Below, piece after piece: positions 31,664 to 51,086 of a stretch of DNA of 60,524 nt. This stretch comes from Hyphobacterium sp. Its GTDB lineage: Bacteria; Pseudomonadota; Alphaproteobacteria; Caulobacterales; Maricaulaceae. Where the stretch lies: positions 1 to 60,524 of the forward strand of contig BQJI01000001.1 of the NCBI GenBank assembly GCA_021604625.1, given 5' to 3'. Numbering within the stretch: position 1 is the stretch's first letter; each line of letters begins with the position of its first letter. Position numbers and translations under genes: made by a program. The notes under the pieces are model-generated. The model saw only the letters and a list, made by a program, of their open reading frames with translations, was not told the DNA's origin and made no database searches.

Positions 31664-32281
31664 TTATTCGTCGCAGAATTCCTGATCCGGGCCGCTCGAA
31701 GGGTTGCGCCATTCGCAATCTTCATCGTCATCCGGTGCTTCCGATGTCGGCTCCTGCGGGCGCGGTGTATTATCGATCGGACCTTGAGGTTCGTCCTCGT
31801 CATCATCGCAATTCTCGCACTCCATGGCTTCGGGGGCCGATGCCGTCCCGCCGGTAGCAAAGCCGACATCACCGCCGCCAAATTGCGTGCCGGGACGCTC
31901 GCGAACTTCCCAACCCGGATCCCCTCCGCCCAGATTATGGGTTGTGGGATCGACCCCGTCGGCGGGTGCAGTGGCAAAGCCGACATCATCGCCGCCAAAT
32001 TGTGTGCCGTGCTGTTCCCGCACTTCCCAGCCCGGATCTCCCCCGCCAAGATTGTTCGTGGTTGGCGCTTCGCGTTCTGTCGGTGCCGGACGGCCTCGCC
32101 TTACACGAATTTCGCCGGAGCGCGTGCGGCAGGTCTCGCCGGGATCAGCCACCCGGCACAAGGGCAGGTTTCGATCCGGTGCGGATTGTTGTGCGCTTTG
32201 CCGCTGCGCATTGGCCGGTGCTGACATCGCCAGACTGCTCGCGCCAACCAAAAGCATGGACAGAATTCGGATGTTCGACAT
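31664..32281 (-). CDS. Secreted acidic hypothetical protein with a 39-aa tandem duplication
   Basis: GGGGAG RBS; signal peptide; repeat PTT.NLGGGDPGWEVRE..GTQFGG.DVGFAT present twice. Confidence 0.7.
   Translation of the reverse strand: MSNIRILSMLLVGASSLAMSAPANAQRQSAQQSAPDRNLPLCRVADPGETCRTRSGEIRVRRGRPAPTEREAPTTNNLGGGDPGWEVREQHGTQFGGDDVGFATAPADGVDPTTHNLGGGDPGWEVRERPGTQFGGGDVGFATGGTASAPEAMECENCDDDEDEPQGPIDNTPRPQEPTSEAPDDDEDCEWRNPSSGPDQEFCDE
31854..32065. repeat. Diverged 117-bp-period tandem duplication inside the CDS
   Basis: GCAAAGCCGACATC recurs at 31857 and 31974. Confidence 0.85.
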
Positions 32282-32327
32282 GGTAGGTCTCCCCTGTTTG
32301 CGGCGATACTAGCACAATTGCTGATGA

Positions 32328-33335
32328 TCAGTCGGACAATCGACGGGCCAGTCGCCGCGCCGGCTTTTCAACCAGATAGTGAAACACTGTCGCGAGCAGG
32401 ATGATGCCGATCATGTCCAGCACGAAGGCCGTAGCACCTGAAAATCCGAAATGGCGCACCGTATTTAATACTGGCAAGTGCAAGAGATAGACGGCAAAGC
32501 TGATATGGCCGAGGAAACGCGCGACCGGATTGGAAAATAGGCTTGAAAACAGGCGCCCCGAATGCGCGGCGGACAGGATAAGGACACCATACAGCCCACC
32601 GAATATCAGTGGCGCATACCACATCGGATTGACCCACCCGGTCACCGCCGACATCGGCGGCAAGGTCAGAACCAGCCCGGCCAGCCCGATCAGCAATCCC
32701 GCATTGGCGATACGGCGAATCCAGTCTGACGACCCGAATTGCGCGCGAAGCGCATGGTGCAGTGTGCCCGCCAGCATGCCGAAGCCGAAAAACGCAACCC
32801 CGCGCAACAGCGATGTGCGGTCTGGCACATCATAGATCATCAGCATCAACGCGAGAACGGCCGTGTAAAACAGCACGCGATTCCAGCCGGTCGCAAACAG
32901 GCCGCCAATCACCGCAATCACCGGGAAGGCGAGGTAGAATTTCATCTCGACCGGAATGGTCCAGAAGATCAGGTAATCGGCGCGCAAAAGCGCCAGATTC
33001 ACCATCAGGTCCCGGTCAACCGCACCATAGATGAAGCTCAGACCGAGCTGATGCGCCAGAAAGGCCAGAATCACCACAACCAGATAGAGCGGATAAACCC
33101 GCATCACCCGGCGAATGCCATAGCCTACCCAGTTGGAAAAACCCGTCTGCCTATTGCCATAGAGCCAGCTCATCAGGAAACCGGACAGGACGAAAAACAA
33201 CATCACCCCATGCTGGCCAGTGCCGCGTATTTCGATGAAATGCCCGATATTGCCCATATGGCCCAGCGCCACCATCAGGGCGGCCAGGCCTCTTATGCCA
33301 TCAAGCGCTGGAATGGATTTGCGATCACCCGTCAT
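32328..33335 (-). CDS. Acyltransferase family 3 (OafA-like O-acyltransferase)
   Basis: LDGIRGLAALMV, FFVLSGF, FWTIPVEMKFY, LGHISFAVYLLH and VEKP motifs. Confidence 0.9.
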   Translation of the reverse strand: MTGDRKSIPALDGIRGLAALMVALGHMGNIGHFIEIRGTGQHGVMLFFVLSGFLMSWLYGNRQTGFSNWVGYGIRRVMRVYPLYLVVVILAFLAHQLGLSFIYGAVDRDLMVNLALLRADYLIFWTIPVEMKFYLAFPVIAVIGGLFATGWNRVLFYTAVLALMLMIYDVPDRTSLLRGVAFFGFGMLAGTLHHALRAQFGSSDWIRRIANAGLLIGLAGLVLTLPPMSAVTGWVNPMWYAPLIFGGLYGVLILSAAHSGRLFSSLFSNPVARFLGHISFAVYLLHLPVLNTVRHFGFSGATAFVLDMIGIILLATVFHYLVEKPARRLARRLSD

Positions 33336-33472
33336 CAACGCGATGCTAGCCGATCCAGCGCGTCGCACAATGCGTCGGCTGCCGCGTCTTCGGGTCGACA
33401 CGGGAATGGCGAATTAGATTCGCTAATGGCGCGCAAACTTTCAGGCCATTCACGTGCTCGGACCATGTGTAG

Positions 33473-33524
33473 AGAATGGAGCGGGCGATGAGATTCGAAC
33501 TCACGACATTCACCTTGGCAAGGT
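33473..33524 (-). repeat. att site: displaced 3' part of tRNA-Gly (52-bp direct repeat)
   Basis: Identical to 40779-40830. Confidence 0.97.
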
Positions 33525-33666
33525 ATTGACGCCCCTTACCCTCGTTACTTGATGCCATACATGTTATTGAATCTCTTCGGAAACACCTGACCGCAGGTTC
33601 TGGAGAGACAGGCACGTTTTTCCACCGCAAGGACGTTCCGAGTGGAACTTTGGTGGAACAAAAAGC

Positions 33667-33695
33667 TTGACATTTAGTCAAAAATAGTATACTAT
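33667..33695 (+). promoter_or_regulatory. Sigma70-like promoter of the integrase (TTGACA-N17-TACTAT)
   Basis: Near-consensus hexamers at 17-bp spacing, upstream of the AAGGAG RBS. Confidence 0.6.
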
Positions 33696-33751
33696 ATAAG
33701 AGTAGGGTTCAGTGTGAATTGCCTACAATTTCAAGACAAAAAGGAGTGACG

Positions 33752-34945
33752 ATGCCGCGACCGCGTCCGGGTAAGCATGCCCGATTCATCAAGCTGCTTG
33801 AAGAGATCAGAAAAGACCGTCCATCCCGTGCAAGATACTTAGAGGGAGTTGGCATCAGGAGCGGCGGTAAGACAGAAACTGCATACTTGAAAATACGACT
33901 GCCGAATGGCGGGCAATATCGCCAGAAATACTACAAACCCGGTTCAGCTATCGAGCTTTCTCTTGGCCGCCTGTCCTCTTGGCCATGGGATCGGCTTCTA
34001 CAGGAGCGGGACAGGCTTCAAGGGCTCGCCGACAGGGGAGAGCCGCTGGAAGAAAAGACGACAGATACCTTCCGTGAAGCTGCAATGACTTGGCTCAACA
34101 CCAAGCGGAATGTTCCCAGCCACACACTAATGAAGGGGCATATCGAAAACTACTTGCTGCCGACTTTTGGCCAAATACCGCTTGACCAGATCGACCTCGA
34201 CCACATTCACCTTTGGCAGGCTAATCTTCTCGAAGACCTCTCTCCGGCGACTGTAAAGCGTATCAGAGGCACTTTCAGCACCATTCTGGCCTATCAGGTC
34301 CGCAAGGGCACTTTGGACCGCAACTGGGTGAAATATGCAGATCCGATCAGGGGGATTGAACCTCGCACCCGGCACCTGACTCGTGAGGAGGTCGGCAAAA
34401 TATTAGAGGCTGCCCGCAAGCTGGAAGGTTTGAAAGACAAGGCTGAACCGTGGAAACACACAGCGCCTTGGCTGGAAGATTTCATAAGATGGCAGCTGGC
34501 AACCGGAATGCGTAAGGGTGAGGCGCTCAGGTTGAAATGGTCAGACATAGACCGGACCTCCAATCAGCCATGCGTAAGGATATCTCAGACCAAGACAGGA
34601 CAGCCCCGAGCCGTTCCTCTCGGTTCGACGACACTCTCAATTCTCGACAGGATGATGGAGTATCCACGCGCTGAAAACGACAGGCGGATATTTCCGGTCT
34701 CCCTGTCCACGGTAACACGCACCCTCAAACTACTATGGGACAAAAGTGACATTGAGGACGTCAGGCTGCATGACCTACGCCGGACTTGCCTCACTTGGCT
34801 GGCAGGGGATGGAATTGATCTCAGAACCGTCCAGTCAATCGCGGGGCATGCAGATTTGAACATGCTCCAGCGACACTATGCGCAACCCCTAAACCATCAA
34901 GCGGCTGCCATAGCAATGGAAGAACGATTTAAAGCAATAGGATAA
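33752..34945 (+). CDS. Tyrosine recombinase / phage-type integrase
   Basis: Catalytic set R (TGMRKGE), K (TKTG), HxxR (LHDLRR), H (AGH) and Y (RHY) is complete; AAGGAG RBS before the ATG at 33752. Confidence 0.95.
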   Translation: MPRPRPGKHARFIKLLEEIRKDRPSRARYLEGVGIRSGGKTETAYLKIRLPNGGQYRQKYYKPGSAIELSLGRLSSWPWDRLLQERDRLQGLADRGEPLEEKTTDTFREAAMTWLNTKRNVPSHTLMKGHIENYLLPTFGQIPLDQIDLDHIHLWQANLLEDLSPATVKRIRGTFSTILAYQVRKGTLDRNWVKYADPIRGIEPRTRHLTREEVGKILEAARKLEGLKDKAEPWKHTAPWLEDFIRWQLATGMRKGEALRLKWSDIDRTSNQPCVRISQTKTGQPRAVPLGSTTLSILDRMMEYPRAENDRRIFPVSLSTVTRTLKLLWDKSDIEDVRLHDLRRTCLTWLAGDGIDLRTVQSIAGHADLNMLQRHYAQPLNHQAAAIAMEERFKAIG

Positions 34946-34949
34946 TGAA

Positions 34950-35144
34950 ATGAAATTGATAAATGACACCGAAATTGCAGAGCAACTTGGAATGTCAGAG
35001 TCTTGGGTGCGCGTGCAGCGGCACAAGCGAAAGCATGGCGAAGATCACTGGTTAGCAATCGACCCGATCTATGTGGGGGAACGCTGCCCACGTTACAGAC
35101 AGGATATGTTTGATTGTTTTATGGAGACGGTCTGTGTCACATGA
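34950..35144 (+). CDS. Excisionase/AlpA-like small HTH protein
   Basis: LINDTEIAEQLGMSESWVR...PIYVGERCPRYR; directly follows the integrase. Confidence 0.7.
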   Translation: MKLINDTEIAEQLGMSESWVRVQRHKRKHGEDHWLAIDPIYVGERCPRYRQDMFDCFMETVCVT

Positions 35145-35210
35145 TTGGTCAGCCTGACCACGTATTTAAATAACTGTATTTATTATAATTTCTAGACAAA
35201 TAGAAGAAGA

Positions 35211-36554
35211 ATGACCGACGCAAGCAATCTATCATTATTGGTGCCGGATGAGCCCGATAAAGATCCCCTAAGCCTCGTGCGTGACCCGCGCTTCAGACAC
35301 GACCTTCAGATACGTACACCAGCGCTCGACCTTTTGGCGGACCGTTTTTTCCCTCTGCTAGAGGCACATCGCGAGCAACACAGCCAAAGAGGCTTTGGAC
35401 ACAAATTACGGCTCAGCTACGATCACGCGCTGAGGTCCATTCTAGCGAACCTCCTGAACAACTCTCGGCCGGAAGAGCGCCGAAGTGTCTGTTACTCTCG
35501 TGCGTGGGCTGACTACGAAACATCAATATATCGTAGCAATGCTCCCGGCAGAGACGTGTTCACAAACTGCTTGGATATATTGGCATCCGAGGGGCTGGTC
35601 GAATTAACGGCGGGCGAATGGGGCCCATTTGGAGAAAAGGGGAAGCTGTCCACTTTCCGCCTGACAGACGTCGGCGCAAAACTATTTCAAGAACTGGGCG
35701 TTCTCGATTCCTGGGTGCCACTCGATTTGACCCAACCCGGCTTAGTCGAGATCAAGAATGCCAAGAAAAAGAAGCTGGAATTCGATCCAGAAACCCCAGA
35801 AATACGCCAGATTCTCGATCAGCTTTTAGCGATCAATCAATTCCTGCGCGATGCGGACATAAGCATAGACGAAAGCGCCAAGACGACCCGGCATTATGGG
35901 CCACTTATTACAGCGAACCCAGCTCTTCAGGCCTATAAACGCATCTTCAACAATGGTGACCTAGCGCAGAACGGACGCTTCTACGGGCCGTGGTGGCTAA
36001 ATATGAAGTCGGCAGACCGACACGCCATTCGCATAGATGGGCAGCCAGTTGCCGGACTGGATTTCTCCGCCTTCAATGCCCGCATTCTATACGCTCAGGA
36101 GAAGCAGGAAGCGCCAGACTGTCCTTACTCTCCGCCAGACCTTGTCGCTCGTGCTGACGCGGTCGGTATTGACTGGCAGGACTTACGACCCGGAATGAAA
36201 GAGCTCTTCAACCGGCTGCTCAATTCAAAAGGTCGCGGAAGCACCAAGGACTACGAAGACTCATTCGCCCTCCATCGAATTACGACTATCGACGAAGCGT
36301 TGAACTTGCTCACAGCCCATAACGATCACATCAGGCATCGGTTCTTCTCGCAGGTAGGAGTGCGAATTTCTCGGCTGGAATCAGAGATTGCTTTGCGTAT
36401 CATGCTTGATGGTTTGACCGACTTTAAGGCCGTTCTTTCTATCCATGATGGCTTTTTCGTTCGGCAGGAGGAAAGCGACTGGTTGTTGGATAGAATGCAT
36501 TACCACTATCTAAGTATCGTAGGAGGTGAGCCAGTAGTTGAAGAGATGTGGTAG
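35211..36554 (+). CDS. Hypothetical protein with family-A/T7-like polymerase palm motifs and a probable N-terminal winged HTH
   Basis: GRFY (255-258), LDFSAFNARILY (motif A-like, D284), R326xxxK330 (motif B-like), LSIHDGF (motif C-like, H412-D413). Confidence 0.65.
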   Translation: MTDASNLSLLVPDEPDKDPLSLVRDPRFRHDLQIRTPALDLLADRFFPLLEAHREQHSQRGFGHKLRLSYDHALRSILANLLNNSRPEERRSVCYSRAWADYETSIYRSNAPGRDVFTNCLDILASEGLVELTAGEWGPFGEKGKLSTFRLTDVGAKLFQELGVLDSWVPLDLTQPGLVEIKNAKKKKLEFDPETPEIRQILDQLLAINQFLRDADISIDESAKTTRHYGPLITANPALQAYKRIFNNGDLAQNGRFYGPWWLNMKSADRHAIRIDGQPVAGLDFSAFNARILYAQEKQEAPDCPYSPPDLVARADAVGIDWQDLRPGMKELFNRLLNSKGRGSTKDYEDSFALHRITTIDEALNLLTAHNDHIRHRFFSQVGVRISRLESEIALRIMLDGLTDFKAVLSIHDGFFVRQEESDWLLDRMHYHYLSIVGGEPVVEEMW

Positions 36555-37111
36555 GTAGGGGTGGGGAGAGATATCGGGGGAATTTGAAGCGCTTAGCTAT
36601 ACACTAGGGTTACCATCCTCTGGTTCTCTTCATTGTAGGGGGTTTAAGCACACACATTCATAAACCGCATAATCAGATCAGCTAAACTAGAGCAGCAAGT
36701 AGGACATTGAAATATATACCCTATTTCTGACTCTATCTCATAAAAATCGGTTTGAATCAAAACATCTCATATTGATTTGGAGCCTTTTTATCAGGTCCAC
36801 GGCACCTTCCTCTGAAGGAAATGATGCGTTCATACTGCTTATCCGTTGACCCAGCCCCTGATCCGGGCCGATCGTTAGTAGAGTCTGTTCGCCTTTCTTT
36901 CTGGTTTTGGTTCAAGGTTCAAGGCCCGGTGAGCGGAGCCCATGCGTAGCTCACGCGAACCGGGCCGGTGTTTGCGGGTTTGCTGGGCGTAGATGGCTGG
37001 CGCCAGCGACATAGCGTGCTAACTTGTGGTAGAGTCGGTTCGGATTTACCAATACATTTTGTCGTGCAACGGGTCTGAATGGAATGACGCGCGGGTGATG
37101 AGGAAAACGGT

Positions 37112-40100
37112 ATGAATGATGATCGCACCTGTATTGCTAAAACCCTGTTCGCTGCCTTTTCGGGATTAATACTCACAAGCACGGTGTTCGCCCAAGGCAA
37201 TTCAGCGCCTGATGCGGTGGATGATGTCATCATTGCCGGTATAGCTCACGATCCTCCAGCACAGGGCATCACCCGATTAGTCGAGCAAATAGATTATTCT
37301 CTATTTGCTGGAACGGTCGTGGCCCGTTTTACAGCGTTAGAAGGCGGCGGATTTGTAATGATTTGGGAGTCGCTCTCTTGGGATAACGACGACATCTATT
37401 CCCAGCAATATAGCGCCACTGGCTCTCCGGTTGGCACAAGAATCAACGCGACAATAGAAGATCTTGAAAATGGCTCTGAGAAGGCCACGCTTGTCGGCGG
37501 CGGGTACGTGTATGCTTATACGGATTTTGTCTGCACATTTTATCTGGGAGTACCGCCAACGTGTAGAGGGGGCGATCACAGACTCAACTTTAGGCTAGTT
37601 TTGCCTGCTCCTCTGTTAGTAGACTCGTCTTATCCGCTCGACGTGTTCGCCAATGACAGCGACCCGAACGGAGATGTGCTGACCCTCACCCATGTGAACG
37701 GGAATGCCATTGTCGAGGATGGATCAGTGACACTGCCATCTGGCGTAAGCATCACTCTGTTGGGCGGTGAGCTGGTCTATGACCCTCGGTCCGCCCCGTT
37801 TGCCATTGCCCTGCCCAAAGATGTCAGCGCCGACGATAATTTTACTTACACAATCAGCGATGGGGTTTTGACCGACACGGCCAATGTCACCGTCACACTG
37901 ACTGGCGTGAATGATGCTCCTTCCGCGGAAAGCGATGAATTGAGCGCCGGAGAGGATGCAGATGGCGCGGATGTCACCGCTACACTTCTTTCCAATGACA
38001 CCGACCCCGACACTGGCACAACTGCGCAATTGGCCATTTCCGCTATCGACACAACTGGCACGCAGGGACAGGTCAATTTCAACGCTGGCAACGTTACCTA
38101 CAGTCCGAATGGCGCTTACGAGAGTCTAGCTGTGGGCCAAACTAGCAGCGACACGTTCCATTACACGATCACTGATCCCGACGGGCTGATTGCTACAGCG
38201 GCAGTGACCGTAACGATAAGCGGTGCCAATGATGCGCCGACCGCAGATGATGACGCGCTCTCATTTTCTGAAGAAGAGGGCGCTAAGGACGTGACGGCGT
38301 TGCTTCTCGCCAGCGATTTTGACCTTGACGATGGCGAGACCGCGCAGCTTTTGATCACAGCGATAGATTCGAGCTCGGCCAACGGACTCGTGACGCTTTC
38401 AAATGGAAGCGTGTCATACGATCCGAACGGCGCTTTCAACTGGTTGGAAGATGGCCAATCCATCACCGACCAGTTTCAGTATACGATTTCTGATCCTCAC
38501 GGTGCGACCGCGACGGCGACAGCGACCGTCACCATTCAGGGCTTTGCTGGATACAGGCTTACGATTGATCGGACCGGGCTGGGCGCTGGTAGTATCACGA
38601 GTGAGCCATCTGGAATCGGGTGTGGAAGCGGCGGCGCTTGCGAAGCTTTGTTCCCTCAGGATGAAAACGTCACGCTTTCCGTTGAAGTCGAGCCAACGAC
38701 CCGCTTCCAAAGTTGGGGAGGCGATTGCGCGAGCGCGAACCAAAGTGCCTGCGCCTTGACCATGAACCAAAACCGTTACGCTTTCGCGCGGTTCGAGTTG
38801 GAAAACCCGCCCGCAGGCCGCATCGTGGCCGCCACGCTTCCCGGTGCTCGTTCTGGATATATTGGAGGCGGAGATATCACCGTGTTCATGACGGTTCTCA
38901 GTCGGCAATCTACCCCAGCCCAAAGCTGTCGCGTAACAGCACCGAATAATCCACCCTTCACGCTGTCTTATCGTCAGGTGAATGCACGAAACGAAGTCAT
39001 CGGCGATGCCAATCCGCTCTTTGATCTGGGCAATGGCGGGGCCATCAACTTTGTGATCGCCCTGACGCCAACACAAACGACCGACGCGAATGGTTATACA
39101 TTCTTGCCGCAGATTGAATGTGAGAATGCCAATCTCTCACCCATTGAAGGCGTGAACTCGGTCTTAGTTTCGATTGGAGCGGCGCCTGTTCCGGATATCC
39201 TCTCCATTGGTGCAACGCCAACAGCCGATGGTGTGGTTCGTATTTCGGCAACGGGTAACCGTATCAGCTTCATGTCTGCCGCAGCATTGAACATCGGCGC
39301 TGGTGATGGATCAGCAGGTGCTGGCGAAGCGACTGTGACGGCCAGCGTGGATACAGGCGCAGCATCCCTGCCTCTCACGCTGGAAGTTTGTGAAACCACC
39401 AGCACAGGCGGTTGTATCACGCCAAGGGGCGTCGATAATGTCACGACCGTTTTTGAGAGCAATGTGGTGAAGTATTTCGGGGTGTTTGTTCGTGCCAATG
39501 GCGATTCAACCGTGCCGTTTAGCCCGGCTAATGCCCGTGTCTTCCTGCGGTTTGCGGATGCCAATGGCACGATCCGTTCTGCAACGAGTGCCGCAGTCTT
39601 TGCCCCCTCACCCGCGGGTGATCAGCCCGAATTTCAATCCGCAATGCCTGTGGGCCGATGGAGCGTATTGGTTAGACAGGGTGATGGCGAATGGCCAAGC
39701 CTGACCCGGGGATCGCTTTACGTTTTGCCTAATGGAACAGCTATCCTTGATGATAGTCAGTCCGTTTCTCGACTGAGTTTTGAAGGCTTTGTCGCCGCCA
39801 ATGATATCGGGCGCTTCGCAGCAAATGAATCAGACGGTGCTTGGACACCAGAAGGTTCAATTCAAACCGGCCCCATCTTAAGTGAATTCCCCGGCGATCT
39901 GTGGGGCGTTCGTGATGCCAGAAGTGAAATTGCACCAGATTGGGGTGATTTATCGGGACGGTATGGTGATGGCATCCAGATCGCATCAGATGGATCGATA
40001 TCTGGCACGATAGCGGGATGCATGATTTCCGGCCGGTCTCGGGCAGATAACGAGACTGCAACGGGACTCCGGGTCGCAAGTGTGAACCTGATGAGATGTG

Positions 40101-40210
40101 AAGCTTCCGGGGAATATCATGCCATTATCGATGCGCCCGCAAACGATCAGGCACCGGCATTACTGCTTTCCGGCTCTGACCATGGATGGCGAATGGTGAG
40201 GAACCAATAG
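37112..40210 (+). CDS. Large secreted surface protein: cadherin/VCBS (Ig-like) repeats, InlB-B-like repeat and an uncharacterised C-terminal region
   Basis: Signal peptide; repeated NDAP.A..D / NDxDPD / DxFxYTISD units; GAGSITSEPSGIGC...FQSWGGDC. Confidence 0.8.
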   Translation: MNDDRTCIAKTLFAAFSGLILTSTVFAQGNSAPDAVDDVIIAGIAHDPPAQGITRLVEQIDYSLFAGTVVARFTALEGGGFVMIWESLSWDNDDIYSQQYSATGSPVGTRINATIEDLENGSEKATLVGGGYVYAYTDFVCTFYLGVPPTCRGGDHRLNFRLVLPAPLLVDSSYPLDVFANDSDPNGDVLTLTHVNGNAIVEDGSVTLPSGVSITLLGGELVYDPRSAPFAIALPKDVSADDNFTYTISDGVLTDTANVTVTLTGVNDAPSAESDELSAGEDADGADVTATLLSNDTDPDTGTTAQLAISAIDTTGTQGQVNFNAGNVTYSPNGAYESLAVGQTSSDTFHYTITDPDGLIATAAVTVTISGANDAPTADDDALSFSEEEGAKDVTALLLASDFDLDDGETAQLLITAIDSSSANGLVTLSNGSVSYDPNGAFNWLEDGQSITDQFQYTISDPHGATATATATVTIQGFAGYRLTIDRTGLGAGSITSEPSGIGCGSGGACEALFPQDENVTLSVEVEPTTRFQSWGGDCASANQSACALTMNQNRYAFARFELENPPAGRIVAATLPGARSGYIGGGDITVFMTVLSRQSTPAQSCRVTAPNNPPFTLSYRQVNARNEVIGDANPLFDLGNGGAINFVIALTPTQTTDANGYTFLPQIECENANLSPIEGVNSVLVSIGAAPVPDILSIGATPTADGVVRISATGNRISFMSAAALNIGAGDGSAGAGEATVTASVDTGAASLPLTLEVCETTSTGGCITPRGVDNVTTVFESNVVKYFGVFVRANGDSTVPFSPANARVFLRFADANGTIRSATSAAVFAPSPAGDQPEFQSAMPVGRWSVLVRQGDGEWPSLTRGSLYVLPNGTAILDDSQSVSRLSFEGFVAANDIGRFAANESDGAWTPEGSIQTGPILSEFPGDLWGVRDARSEIAPDWGDLSGRYGDGIQIASDGSISGTIAGCMISGRSRADNETATGLRVASVNLMRCEASGEYHAIIDAPANDQAPALLLSGSDHGWRMVRNQ

Positions 40211-40232
40211 ATCATCAGAAGAAGGCTTGTCG

Positions 40233-40460
40233 TTAGCCATCTTCCCATACACACGATCCCGCATCATCGACACCCCCACCATGGACATACGGATTACGGT
40301 TGCCGGTGACCGCAAAGATGCGTGCTTCCCTTTCTGCTTCCCATGGCGATATCGGATCGTTCTCCGACCATTCAACAAACATTTCCCACTCTTCGTCTAG
40401 CATGCGAACGCCATGGGTATTGTCCATGTAGAACCACACCCGTGCGACATCGCCTCGATG
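40233..40460 (-). pseudogene. C-terminal fragment of endonuclease I (EndA/Dns family)
   Basis: HRGDVARVWFYM...W...DPISPWEAERE.RI...GNRNPYV matches the endonuclease I C-terminus; the N-terminal part is missing. Confidence 0.75.
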
Positions 40461-40549
40461 GCAAGGCGGCGATAACCGAAGCGACGACGCTCCCCGGCCA
40501 GATCACGCAGGCGCCCACGCAAAGGCGCATCGCCCGCATCGCGCTTGCT
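40461..40549 (-). pseudogene. IS3-family transposase OrfB fragment
   Basis: Manual translation SKRDAGDAPLRGRLRDLAGERRRFGYRRL, typical of the IS3/IS407-group OrfB N-terminus; GC-richer than its surroundings. Confidence 0.75.
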
Positions 40550-40782
40550 GTTCCCCGTCAGCGTTCGGGAGACTGGTAGAACATCTTGGCCAAAGGCCGG
40601 GTATTTCTACGAGAAAAATTCTCGGCATACCTTGCAATAGAAACCGCACCCCCGGCAGCCCCTGCCCACCCCACTATTCATAAGACTTACTGTCAGCGCC
40701 AACCACGGACGGTGTTGGTGGAAATCCAGTGGAACCAAACTTTTTACAGTTTGGCCTTTTGCAGATAAGTTATTGAAAAGAA

Positions 40783-40857
40783 TGGAGCGGGCGATGAGAT
40801 TCGAACTCACGACATTCACCTTGGCAAGGTGACGCTCTACCCCTGAGCTACGCCCGC
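40783..40857 (-). tRNA. tRNA-Gly(GCC)
   Basis: GCGGGCGTAGCTCAGGGGTAGAGCGTCACCTTGCCAAGGTGAATGTCGTGAGTTCGAATCTCATCGCCCGCTCCA: cloverleaf, anticodon GCC, encoded CCA. Confidence 0.98.

Positions 40858-51009: not shown

Positions 51010-51086
<77 letters not shown>

Follow-up and report, generated by a model that had tools for sequence, protein, structure and literature searches.

A 7.3-kb tRNA-Gly integrative element of Hyphobacterium and its divPolA2-family polymerase

How might a mobile element copy itself when a single polymerase is the only candidate replication gene that it carries? The question is raised by a 7.3-kb element in a 60,524-nucleotide stretch of Hyphobacterium sp. DNA (assembly GCA_021604625.1, contig BQJI01000001.1, positions 1 to 60,524; here called the window), which is inserted in a tRNA-Gly gene and encodes a tyrosine integrase, a small helix-turn-helix (HTH) protein, a 447-aa polymerase, and one large cargo protein. 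The enzyme family sits between DNA polymerase I and the T7-type RNA polymerases, and whether its members synthesize DNA, RNA, or primers was asked in 2008 and again in 2024.

Element boundaries and the class to which it belongs

The element is bounded by a perfect 52-bp direct repeat (33473-33524 and 40779-40830) that cannot be extended at either side and spans tRNA-Gly(GCC) from its anticodon stem, at position 28, to 4 nt beyond CCA. The repeat has just two copies in the 2.36-Mb assembly, spaced 7,306 bp apart. The original prediction, made without database searches, had described this repeat exactly; it had also named an integrase with all of its catalytic residues, a 447-aa polymerase-like gene, and one large cargo gene, while seeing no capsid, terminase, relaxase, helicase, or Rep gene. 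All of this stands: the six catalytic residues are present (R265, K293, H351, R354, H377, and Y387), both genes are in place, and none of those families matched among the five island open reading frames (ORFs) scanned. The attachment (att) sites and backbone genes are as follows.

33473-33524: att core, distal end, the displaced 3' part of tRNA-Gly; 52/52 identical to 40779-40830
33620-33660: likely integrase arm-type sites, two tandem GTGGAA 11 bp apart and one inverted copy
33719-34945, plus strand: tyrosine integrase with a TTG start (408 aa), an alternative start being the ATG at 33752; PF00589, E = 6e-28
34950-35144, plus strand: 64-aa HTH protein; HTH_23, E = 6e-4, under the curated cutoff
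35211-36554, plus strand: 447-aa protein of the divPolA2 family, TV-Pol-like, with a winged helix and a minimal family-A polymerase core
36620-36649, plus strand: copy of the post-polymerase motif, a candidate initiation site, kept in the sister element
40594-40778: tRNA-side arm common to the sister element L002, whose homology resumes at 40594; tandem GTGGAA at 40718 and 40729
40783-40857, minus strand: tRNA-Gly(GCC), by ARAGORN and Rfam; with the att core (40779-40830) the feature is 40779-40857

The tandem GTGGAA repeats have an identical layout and spacing at both element ends and in L002 and are likely arm-type sites of the integrase. The GC content of the island is 52.7%, against 57.3% for the genome. 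An empty site is seen in the genus member G147, where the gene to the left of the island directly follows the tRNA, and the locus thus combines what is expected of a tDNA-integrated island: a tyrosine integrase, a restored tRNA, a displaced 3' fragment, and an empty site in a relative. The HTH protein, 95% identical to its sister copy, is judged from its sequence a likely excisionase or regulator. It had been called Xis/AlpA-like; the ORF has the weak HTH match, but no AlpA or Xis family matched it in domain-library scans, and that name is an inference.

The sister, in genome G050, is a 10.4-kb element at the same tRNA site with a perfect 56-bp repeat; window positions 33473-36688 are 80% identical to it. 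The three backbone genes (integrase, HTH, and polymerase) are under purifying selection, with ratios of nonsynonymous to synonymous divergence (dN/dS) between window and sister of 0.084, 0.035, and 0.169, respectively, compared with 0.09-0.15 in host genes.

Is the polymerase tied to such elements elsewhere? The loci surveyed comprise 5 from a family search, 40 of the places matched in the class and order genome scans (short fragments and some same-family repeats excluded), 120 from among the motif-scan matches listed (80 with flanks), and 5 added viral contigs. In all, 72 loci, the window's among them, have 8 kb or more on each side; L118 duplicates L025, and related loci do not count as independent. 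A tyrosine integrase occurs in 59 of these 72 (its profile was built from 18 of the loci), a resolvase in 25, and a tRNA or transfer-messenger RNA gene in 55, and 38 are att-bounded, having a tRNA plus a duplicate of its end of at least 14 bp. Among 155 background positions in the same genomes, the corresponding counts are 7 for integrase, 35 for tRNA, and 0 for att-bounded. The predicted linkage of homologues to integrases and tRNA att sites is found across the class, and the window element is a member of a broad class of tRNA-att integrase-polymerase elements.

The 41 bounded elements range from 2.4 to 17.3 kb (median, 9.0 kb), use nine tRNA types, and cluster at 6.5-13 kb, with no virion or conjugation genes. 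Polymerase and integrase are the only near-universal families (39/41); a resolvase occurs in 15. Gene order varies: the integrase lies directly upstream of the polymerase, on the same strand and within 1.1 kb, in 10 of the 41, and Pfam AlpA is present in 1 of the 40 other bounded elements, so that the int-xis-polymerase core proposed earlier survives as two fixed genes but not as that order or with that middle gene. Pfam scans of 287 ORFs (139 of 160 and 148 of 171 selected, short ones being dropped) revealed no helicase of the D5/DnaB type and no primase, Rep, capsid, terminase, or relaxase; the helicase domains seen were confined to restriction enzymes, and one 1,018-aa P-loop ORF received no assignment. 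With no other replication family among these ORFs, the polymerase stands alone as a candidate for that role. Methylase or restriction genes are carried by 9/40 elements and Cas9 by 1/40, and other cargo includes toxin-antitoxin parts, metal efflux, and surface proteins.

Some members of the class have features of their own. The polymerase start lies less than 700 bp from an att end in 8/41 elements (L022, L028, L071, L075, L109, L110, L122, and L128), in which excision would bring new DNA upstream of the polymerase. An 11.75-kb IMG/VR contig (L194:30-11617) is almost exactly one att-bounded element, with RHS-repeat cargo, and L126 contains a similar element. The cargo of L046 (10999-14045), with thymidylate synthase-like, aGPT-Pplase3, and IrrE-like genes, is likely a DNA-modification system.

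The polymerase and its relatives

The structure model of the 447-aa protein (predicted local distance difference test [pLDDT], 90) places a polymerase core at residues 171-447, which match family-A DNA polymerases and single-subunit RNA polymerases at Z scores of 12.0-12.7; these two groups account for the best 15 fold matches. Among them are the apicoplast polymerase (Z, 12.7; root mean square deviation [rmsd], 4.5; 244 residues aligned), yeast mitochondrial RNA polymerase (Z, 12.6; rmsd, 3.5; 236 aligned), and T7 RNA polymerase (Z, 12.0; rmsd, 3.7; 253 aligned). The reading of D284 and D413 as the acidic pair of a family-A-like enzyme is borne out by this fold and by their conservation in 230 and 229 of 231 aligned members; R326 (223) and K330 (228) are also near-invariant. 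The protein has the palm aspartates D284/D413, the fingers residues R326/K330 (RxxxK), and the hairpin arginines R244 and R256. Column 304 of the fingers module is Asp in 211/231 members, with Cys304 and an adjacent Asp303 in the window protein and its sister. Residues 34-170, modeled as helices plus strands, resemble many winged-helix proteins at middling Z scores (5.0-6.3), and the model has no exonuclease domain.

In T7 DNA polymerase, a Glu five residues past the motif-A Asp is the sugar gate. That position is Glu in 0/231 members and His in 112/231, which fits use of ribonucleotides (the gate Glu is mentioned in the available part of PMC10201439). The family also has GR[FL]Y and IHDSF, which are RNA polymerase-like: the corresponding motifs are WRGRVY and IHDSF in T7 RNA polymerase and TGRA and VHDE in T7 DNA polymerase. 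The motif-B Tyr of both T7 enzymes is replaced by Asn in 202/231 members. When profiles were compared with those of T7-like RNA and DNA polymerases, only motif C aligned, which does not allow the two to be ranked. The ORF has no Pfam or NCBIfam match, a sequence search of solved structures gave nothing significant, and phrog_4756, a family of no known function, matches at E = 2e-23. The family comprises 3,803 clusters at 50% identity, and homologues were matched in 27/400 genomes of the class (∼7%), 15/400 of the order, and 5/150 of the bacterial family.

The name divPolA2 has been given to divergent family-A polymerases from barbaviruses and their phage relatives (Yutin et al. 2024, PMC11348598; cited throughout from the available part of its text), and the window polymerase belongs to this family. 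Its profile matches the divPolA2 representative AUR84708 (hhalign, 99.5%; E = 6e-23) and barbavirus gp34 (99.7%) in alignments that cover both the N-terminal domain and the core, with HMM E values of 1e-33 and 1e-38, and a Foldseek search matches the Barba31A protein (E = 4e-19). Like the enzymes described there, it has an intact palm, an extra N-terminal domain, no 3'-5' exonuclease, and a Z score of ∼12 to mitochondrial RNA polymerase. That text places divPolA2 in phages only, beside a regular replicase, whereas the window copy resides on a chromosomal element; it also detects no similarity for the N-terminal domain, which in the window protein resembles a winged helix. A tree of 118 sequences unites the four phage members in a single clade (support, 0.98).

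A second precedent is TV-Pol, a subset of which has an N-terminal domain and lies beside lambda-type integrases, resolvases, and transposases; it was proposed as a primase-polymerase of replicative elements (Iyer, Abhiman and Aravind 2008, PMC2579912). Shared features are a minimal family-A core without a nuclease, the hairpin Arg, the two Asp, RxxxK, integrase or resolvase neighbors, and proximity to restriction-modification genes; the fingers Asp is likewise a TV-Pol feature. On the other hand, the TV-Pol N-terminal domain (TV-PolN) was predicted to be all-helical whereas our model has strands, the elements studied here lack a D5 helicase, and the main text of that paper contains no tRNA att mapping and no cis motif. 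Membership in TV-Pol is likely from these features, although the sequence link is weak. Among 238 ORFs of Ma-LMM01 the polymerase profile found no significant match; gp30, presumed to be a TV-Pol from its IS605-type neighbors, aligns collinearly but weakly (E = 0.004-0.07; 0.014 over 156 core columns), and the poor model of the gp30 family (pLDDT, 58) made a fold search uninformative.

The class had been proposed as a little-characterized one. It is real, but its polymerase already bore the name divPolA2, and integrase-linked TV-Pol elements had been proposed in 2008. In the literature searched, which included few subscription papers, we found no link between divPolA2 and integrative elements, no description of the motif discussed below, and no Cas9 on such an element. 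In the small-genome family f9, 4/4 sampled genomes carry a diverged 452-aa homologue (L042:9564-10919 and L056:9728-11083), with the same downstream gene and no integrase or tRNA nearby in these two loci, possibly a domesticated copy. ORF100 of Vibrio phage ICP1, which is a satellite helper phage, is another member of the family.

A motif behind the polymerase gene and the role of the enzyme

Within ∼170 bp past the polymerase stop codon lies a motif consisting of a pyrimidine-rich stretch, CCATTANTRGG, six bases, and TAAG. In four-fold cross-validation over 106 loci (score threshold, 7), held-out matches fell in the stop-codon bin at 20/106 loci and in the next bin at 7, compared with 0-3 in other bins of this strand and 0-5 in bins of the opposite one. 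The motif is specific in position and strand. It is commoner where an integrase is nearby (20/74 versus 2/32 loci). High in-sample scores cluster in the tree around the window polymerase, with a shorter variant elsewhere. Counting of k-mers did not reveal the motif, and a first, wider expectation-maximization run barely exceeded controls. The gene that follows lies on the same strand in 14 cases and on the opposite strand in 12, and the motif was rejected as a cargo gene promoter because of this lack of strand bias. A sigma-70 promoter scan of 36500-37150 found none, and an Rfam scan found no family besides tRNA.

What, then, does the polymerase do? The explanation that we favor, with confidence no better than even, is that after excision it primes replication of the circle at the motif and that a helper then transfers the element. 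The integrase would excise the element as a 7,306-bp circle, assisted by the HTH protein; the winged helix of the polymerase would bind the motif, where the enzyme would lay an RNA or mixed primer de novo; host enzymes or the polymerase itself would extend the primer without an element helicase; and transfer would take place in helper-phage particles or vesicles. A wider proposal, which we advance only tentatively and consider doubtful as a whole, is that the tRNA-integrating elements of 6 to 13 kb form a widespread one-protein class, in which the winged helix finds a short origin behind the polymerase gene and an RNA polymerase-like family-A core both primes and copies the circle, needing neither helicase nor partner, that they ferry defense systems up to an entire Cas9 locus, and that lytic marine phages took divPolA2 from them.

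Precedents for such a mechanism are found in other islands, all described here from the available parts of the sources. The origins of Staphylococcus aureus pathogenicity islands (SaPIs) and of staphylococcal cassette chromosome mec (SCCmec) sit immediately downstream of rep (PMC7581432), and PICMIs (phage-inducible chromosomal minimalist islands) replicate with int, alpA, and primase alone (PMC10803314). CCPol-MP-Cch2 of SCCmec, considered with the PolA-SSB primases (PMC7581432, PMC10061031), also combines a family-A domain on a mobile island, de novo priming, and a preferred start downstream of the replication genes, a likeness drawn from description and not from a sequence relation. CCPol differs in needing an OB-fold partner to prime, in working with a helicase (PMC7581432), and in its serine recombinases; OB folds can evade sequence searches (PMC10061031). 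The closest life cycle model, by analogy, would be that of PICMIs and the virion-encapsidated integrative mobile elements (VEIMEs; PMC9618062), which have ∼6 kb, int, alpA, one replication gene, defense cargo, and no capsid. PICMIs are inserted next to fis in Vibrionaceae with a primase-annotated gene, whereas our element sits in tRNA-Gly and matches no AlpA or primase family; packaging in phage particles was demonstrated for PICMIs, and concatemer packaging by a helper phage, a mark of PICMI and VEIME satellites, is conjectural for our element. The comparison with pipolins (PMC11551731) made in the original prediction is apt for the layout, with flanking direct repeats, a minimal polymerase core, and exchangeable defense cargo, but not for the enzyme, since pipolins have a primer-independent family-B polymerase and ours has a family-A fold.

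Several observations weigh against replication priming on a mobile circle. Neither integrase nor resolvase is nearby at 12/72 well-flanked loci, and no recurring partner or replicative helicase occurs in the 41 bounded elements. The motif exceeds the threshold in a minority of held-out loci (22/106, and 7/36 of the att-bounded), and the window copy scores 10.2 in-sample and 4.8 held out, below the threshold. It is absent behind 4/4 phage-encoded members, although these phages own a replicase and the absence can be read as support for a priming role. Fold closeness is alike for RNA polymerases (Z, 12.6 and 12.0) and DNA polymerase (Z, 12.7), no activity assay of the family was found in the literature searched, and the describers of divPolA2, noting variable phage contexts, favor repair or RNA synthesis (PMC11348598). 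Long residence of the element is possible, as its backbone has diverged like host genes, with synonymous divergence (dS, 0.64-1.72 between window and sister) of similar order in element and host. The contigs available as read data came from a single study's two DNA runs, one of which may be the source, and no RNA run with the element was listed. In these contigs the element has a depth of 19.7, versus 16.0 and 17.9 for its flanks, a difference that gives no copy number; neither a circle joint nor an empty-site joint was listed, which proves nothing.

The main rival, which we regard as unlikely, holds that the enzyme works as a minimal RNA polymerase of the single-subunit kind, with the motif as its own promoter, serving regulation or expression and not priming. 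GR[FL]Y, IHDSF, and the absent gate Glu side with T7 RNA polymerase, the yeast mitochondrial and T7 RNA polymerases tie with the best DNA polymerase as fold matches, and an RNA polymerase role was raised by the describers of divPolA2 (PMC11348598). On the opposite strand, the motif finishes with an AT-rich block and then purines, like T7 promoters, a resemblance judged by eye and unscored; yet in that orientation it points back into the polymerase gene, and the genes that come after it have no strand bias. The specificity loop of T7 RNA polymerase lies between the equivalents of K330 and D413. These residues are 83 apart here, compared with 181 in T7, which leaves no room for such a loop. Moreover, a short RNA made from the motif could equally serve as the primer of the explanation that we favor. 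Less probable still is an accessory role in repair or gap filling, in which the polymerase aids integration, cargo capture, or circle survival without initiating replication. The lack of an exonuclease domain in the model, the presence of a regular replicase beside phage members (PMC11348598), and fast cargo turnover, as in the Cas9 exchange described below, are compatible with it, but a position- and strand-specific motif is unexpected for a general repair enzyme, and the absent gate Glu fits DNA-only gap filling poorly.

The abundance of methylase, restriction, and Cas9 genes among the neighbors could also mean that the polymerase is itself a defense effector, one that synthesizes some unusual nucleic acid when phages infect and that defense islands carry as their most constant cargo. 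We consider this improbable: it sits beside the integrase, resolvase, and att ends, it has persisted in the window after the defense cargo was lost, and it occurs in lytic phages. Least probable of all, and very much so, is that the island decayed from a larger prophage or integrative and conjugative element and no longer moves. The two gene fragments (cas2 and endonuclease I) would fit, as would a backbone identity to the sister (80%) like that of the flanking host DNA (75-79%). However, the att repeats are perfect in both window and sister despite the dS values, which argues for recent recombination; purifying selection acts on the backbone genes; 2/12 other genus members carry the polymerase, one of them at another site, while G147 has an empty site; and the bounded elements form a narrow size cluster that lacks virion and conjugation genes. 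The remnant reading, named beforehand as what would overturn the idea of a distinct class, is therefore not upheld: the elements are small and complete.

Compared with the phages, the element context adds a 7.3-kb unit with defined ends, a candidate site of initiation, and a pair of catalytic residues, which together make the function of this polymerase family directly testable.

Loss of Cas9 and other features of the locus

The window and its sister provide a clean snapshot of CRISPR-Cas9 loss and replacement on a minimal island. The CRISPR repeat remnant, the cas2 3' end, and the endonuclease I fragment in the following list, like the arm-type repeats, were absent from the original prediction, which had correctly called the cargo exchangeable, as the Cas9 sister, the surface protein cargo, and the varied cargo of the class demonstrate.

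36664-36689, plus strand: 26-nt remnant of the sister's 36-nt CRISPR repeat, without spacers
36690-36846, minus strand: array flank and cas2 3' end (last 29 codons, 36760-36846)
37112-40210, plus strand: cargo, a 1,032-aa Ig/cadherin-repeat (VCBS-type) protein; Big_9, Cadherin_4/5, and VCBS
40236-40439, minus strand: C-terminal fragment of an endonuclease I gene; PF04231 positions 197-232 of 235, E = 5e-10

The cargo of L002 (10876-17160) comprises complete cas9, cas1, and cas2 and an array of 26 repeats and 25 spacers. In the window, 36664-36846 is identical to L002 at 166/184 nt, covering the repeat remnant and 158 bp of array flank plus cas2 3' end. The remnant, the sole match in the genome, is identical to the L002 repeat at 25/26 nt, the last 29 Cas2 residues are identical to the sister's C terminus (29/29), and cas1 and cas9 have no match in the assembly (88% complete). 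Together these observations indicate that the array shrank to one partial repeat and that the cas genes gave way to other cargo, an event that the sequence suggests is likely recent. The L002 array had no phage match in the phage collection searched, and its 25 spacers gave partial matches only (≤20 nt) to the genome and loci.

The replacing 1,032-aa protein is likely surface exposed. Its C-terminal region has matches (27-37%) in nine further contigs of this genome, and the gene was likely captured from a family of host genes. Cargo residues ∼560-830 have no Pfam match and recur beside the same tRNA in G033 (L016). An apparent resemblance of 40397-40600 to an IS3 fragment was discarded, as no Pfam match was found.

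The tRNA-Gly is a hot spot for insertion. Among ten other genus members compared at this tRNA, two have a duplicated tRNA end, G101 (L013, an island of ∼16 kb with an integrase) and G129 (L014, ∼5 kb); both islands lack the polymerase, which was found in none of the ten stretches compared. Just beyond the distal att, 31664-33401 contains a 205-aa repeat-containing ORF and an acyltransferase gene, unmatched in the sister and empty-site loci, which may be left from an earlier island at the same tRNA. A second tRNA gene in the window, tRNA-Arg (CCG), lies at 51010-51086.

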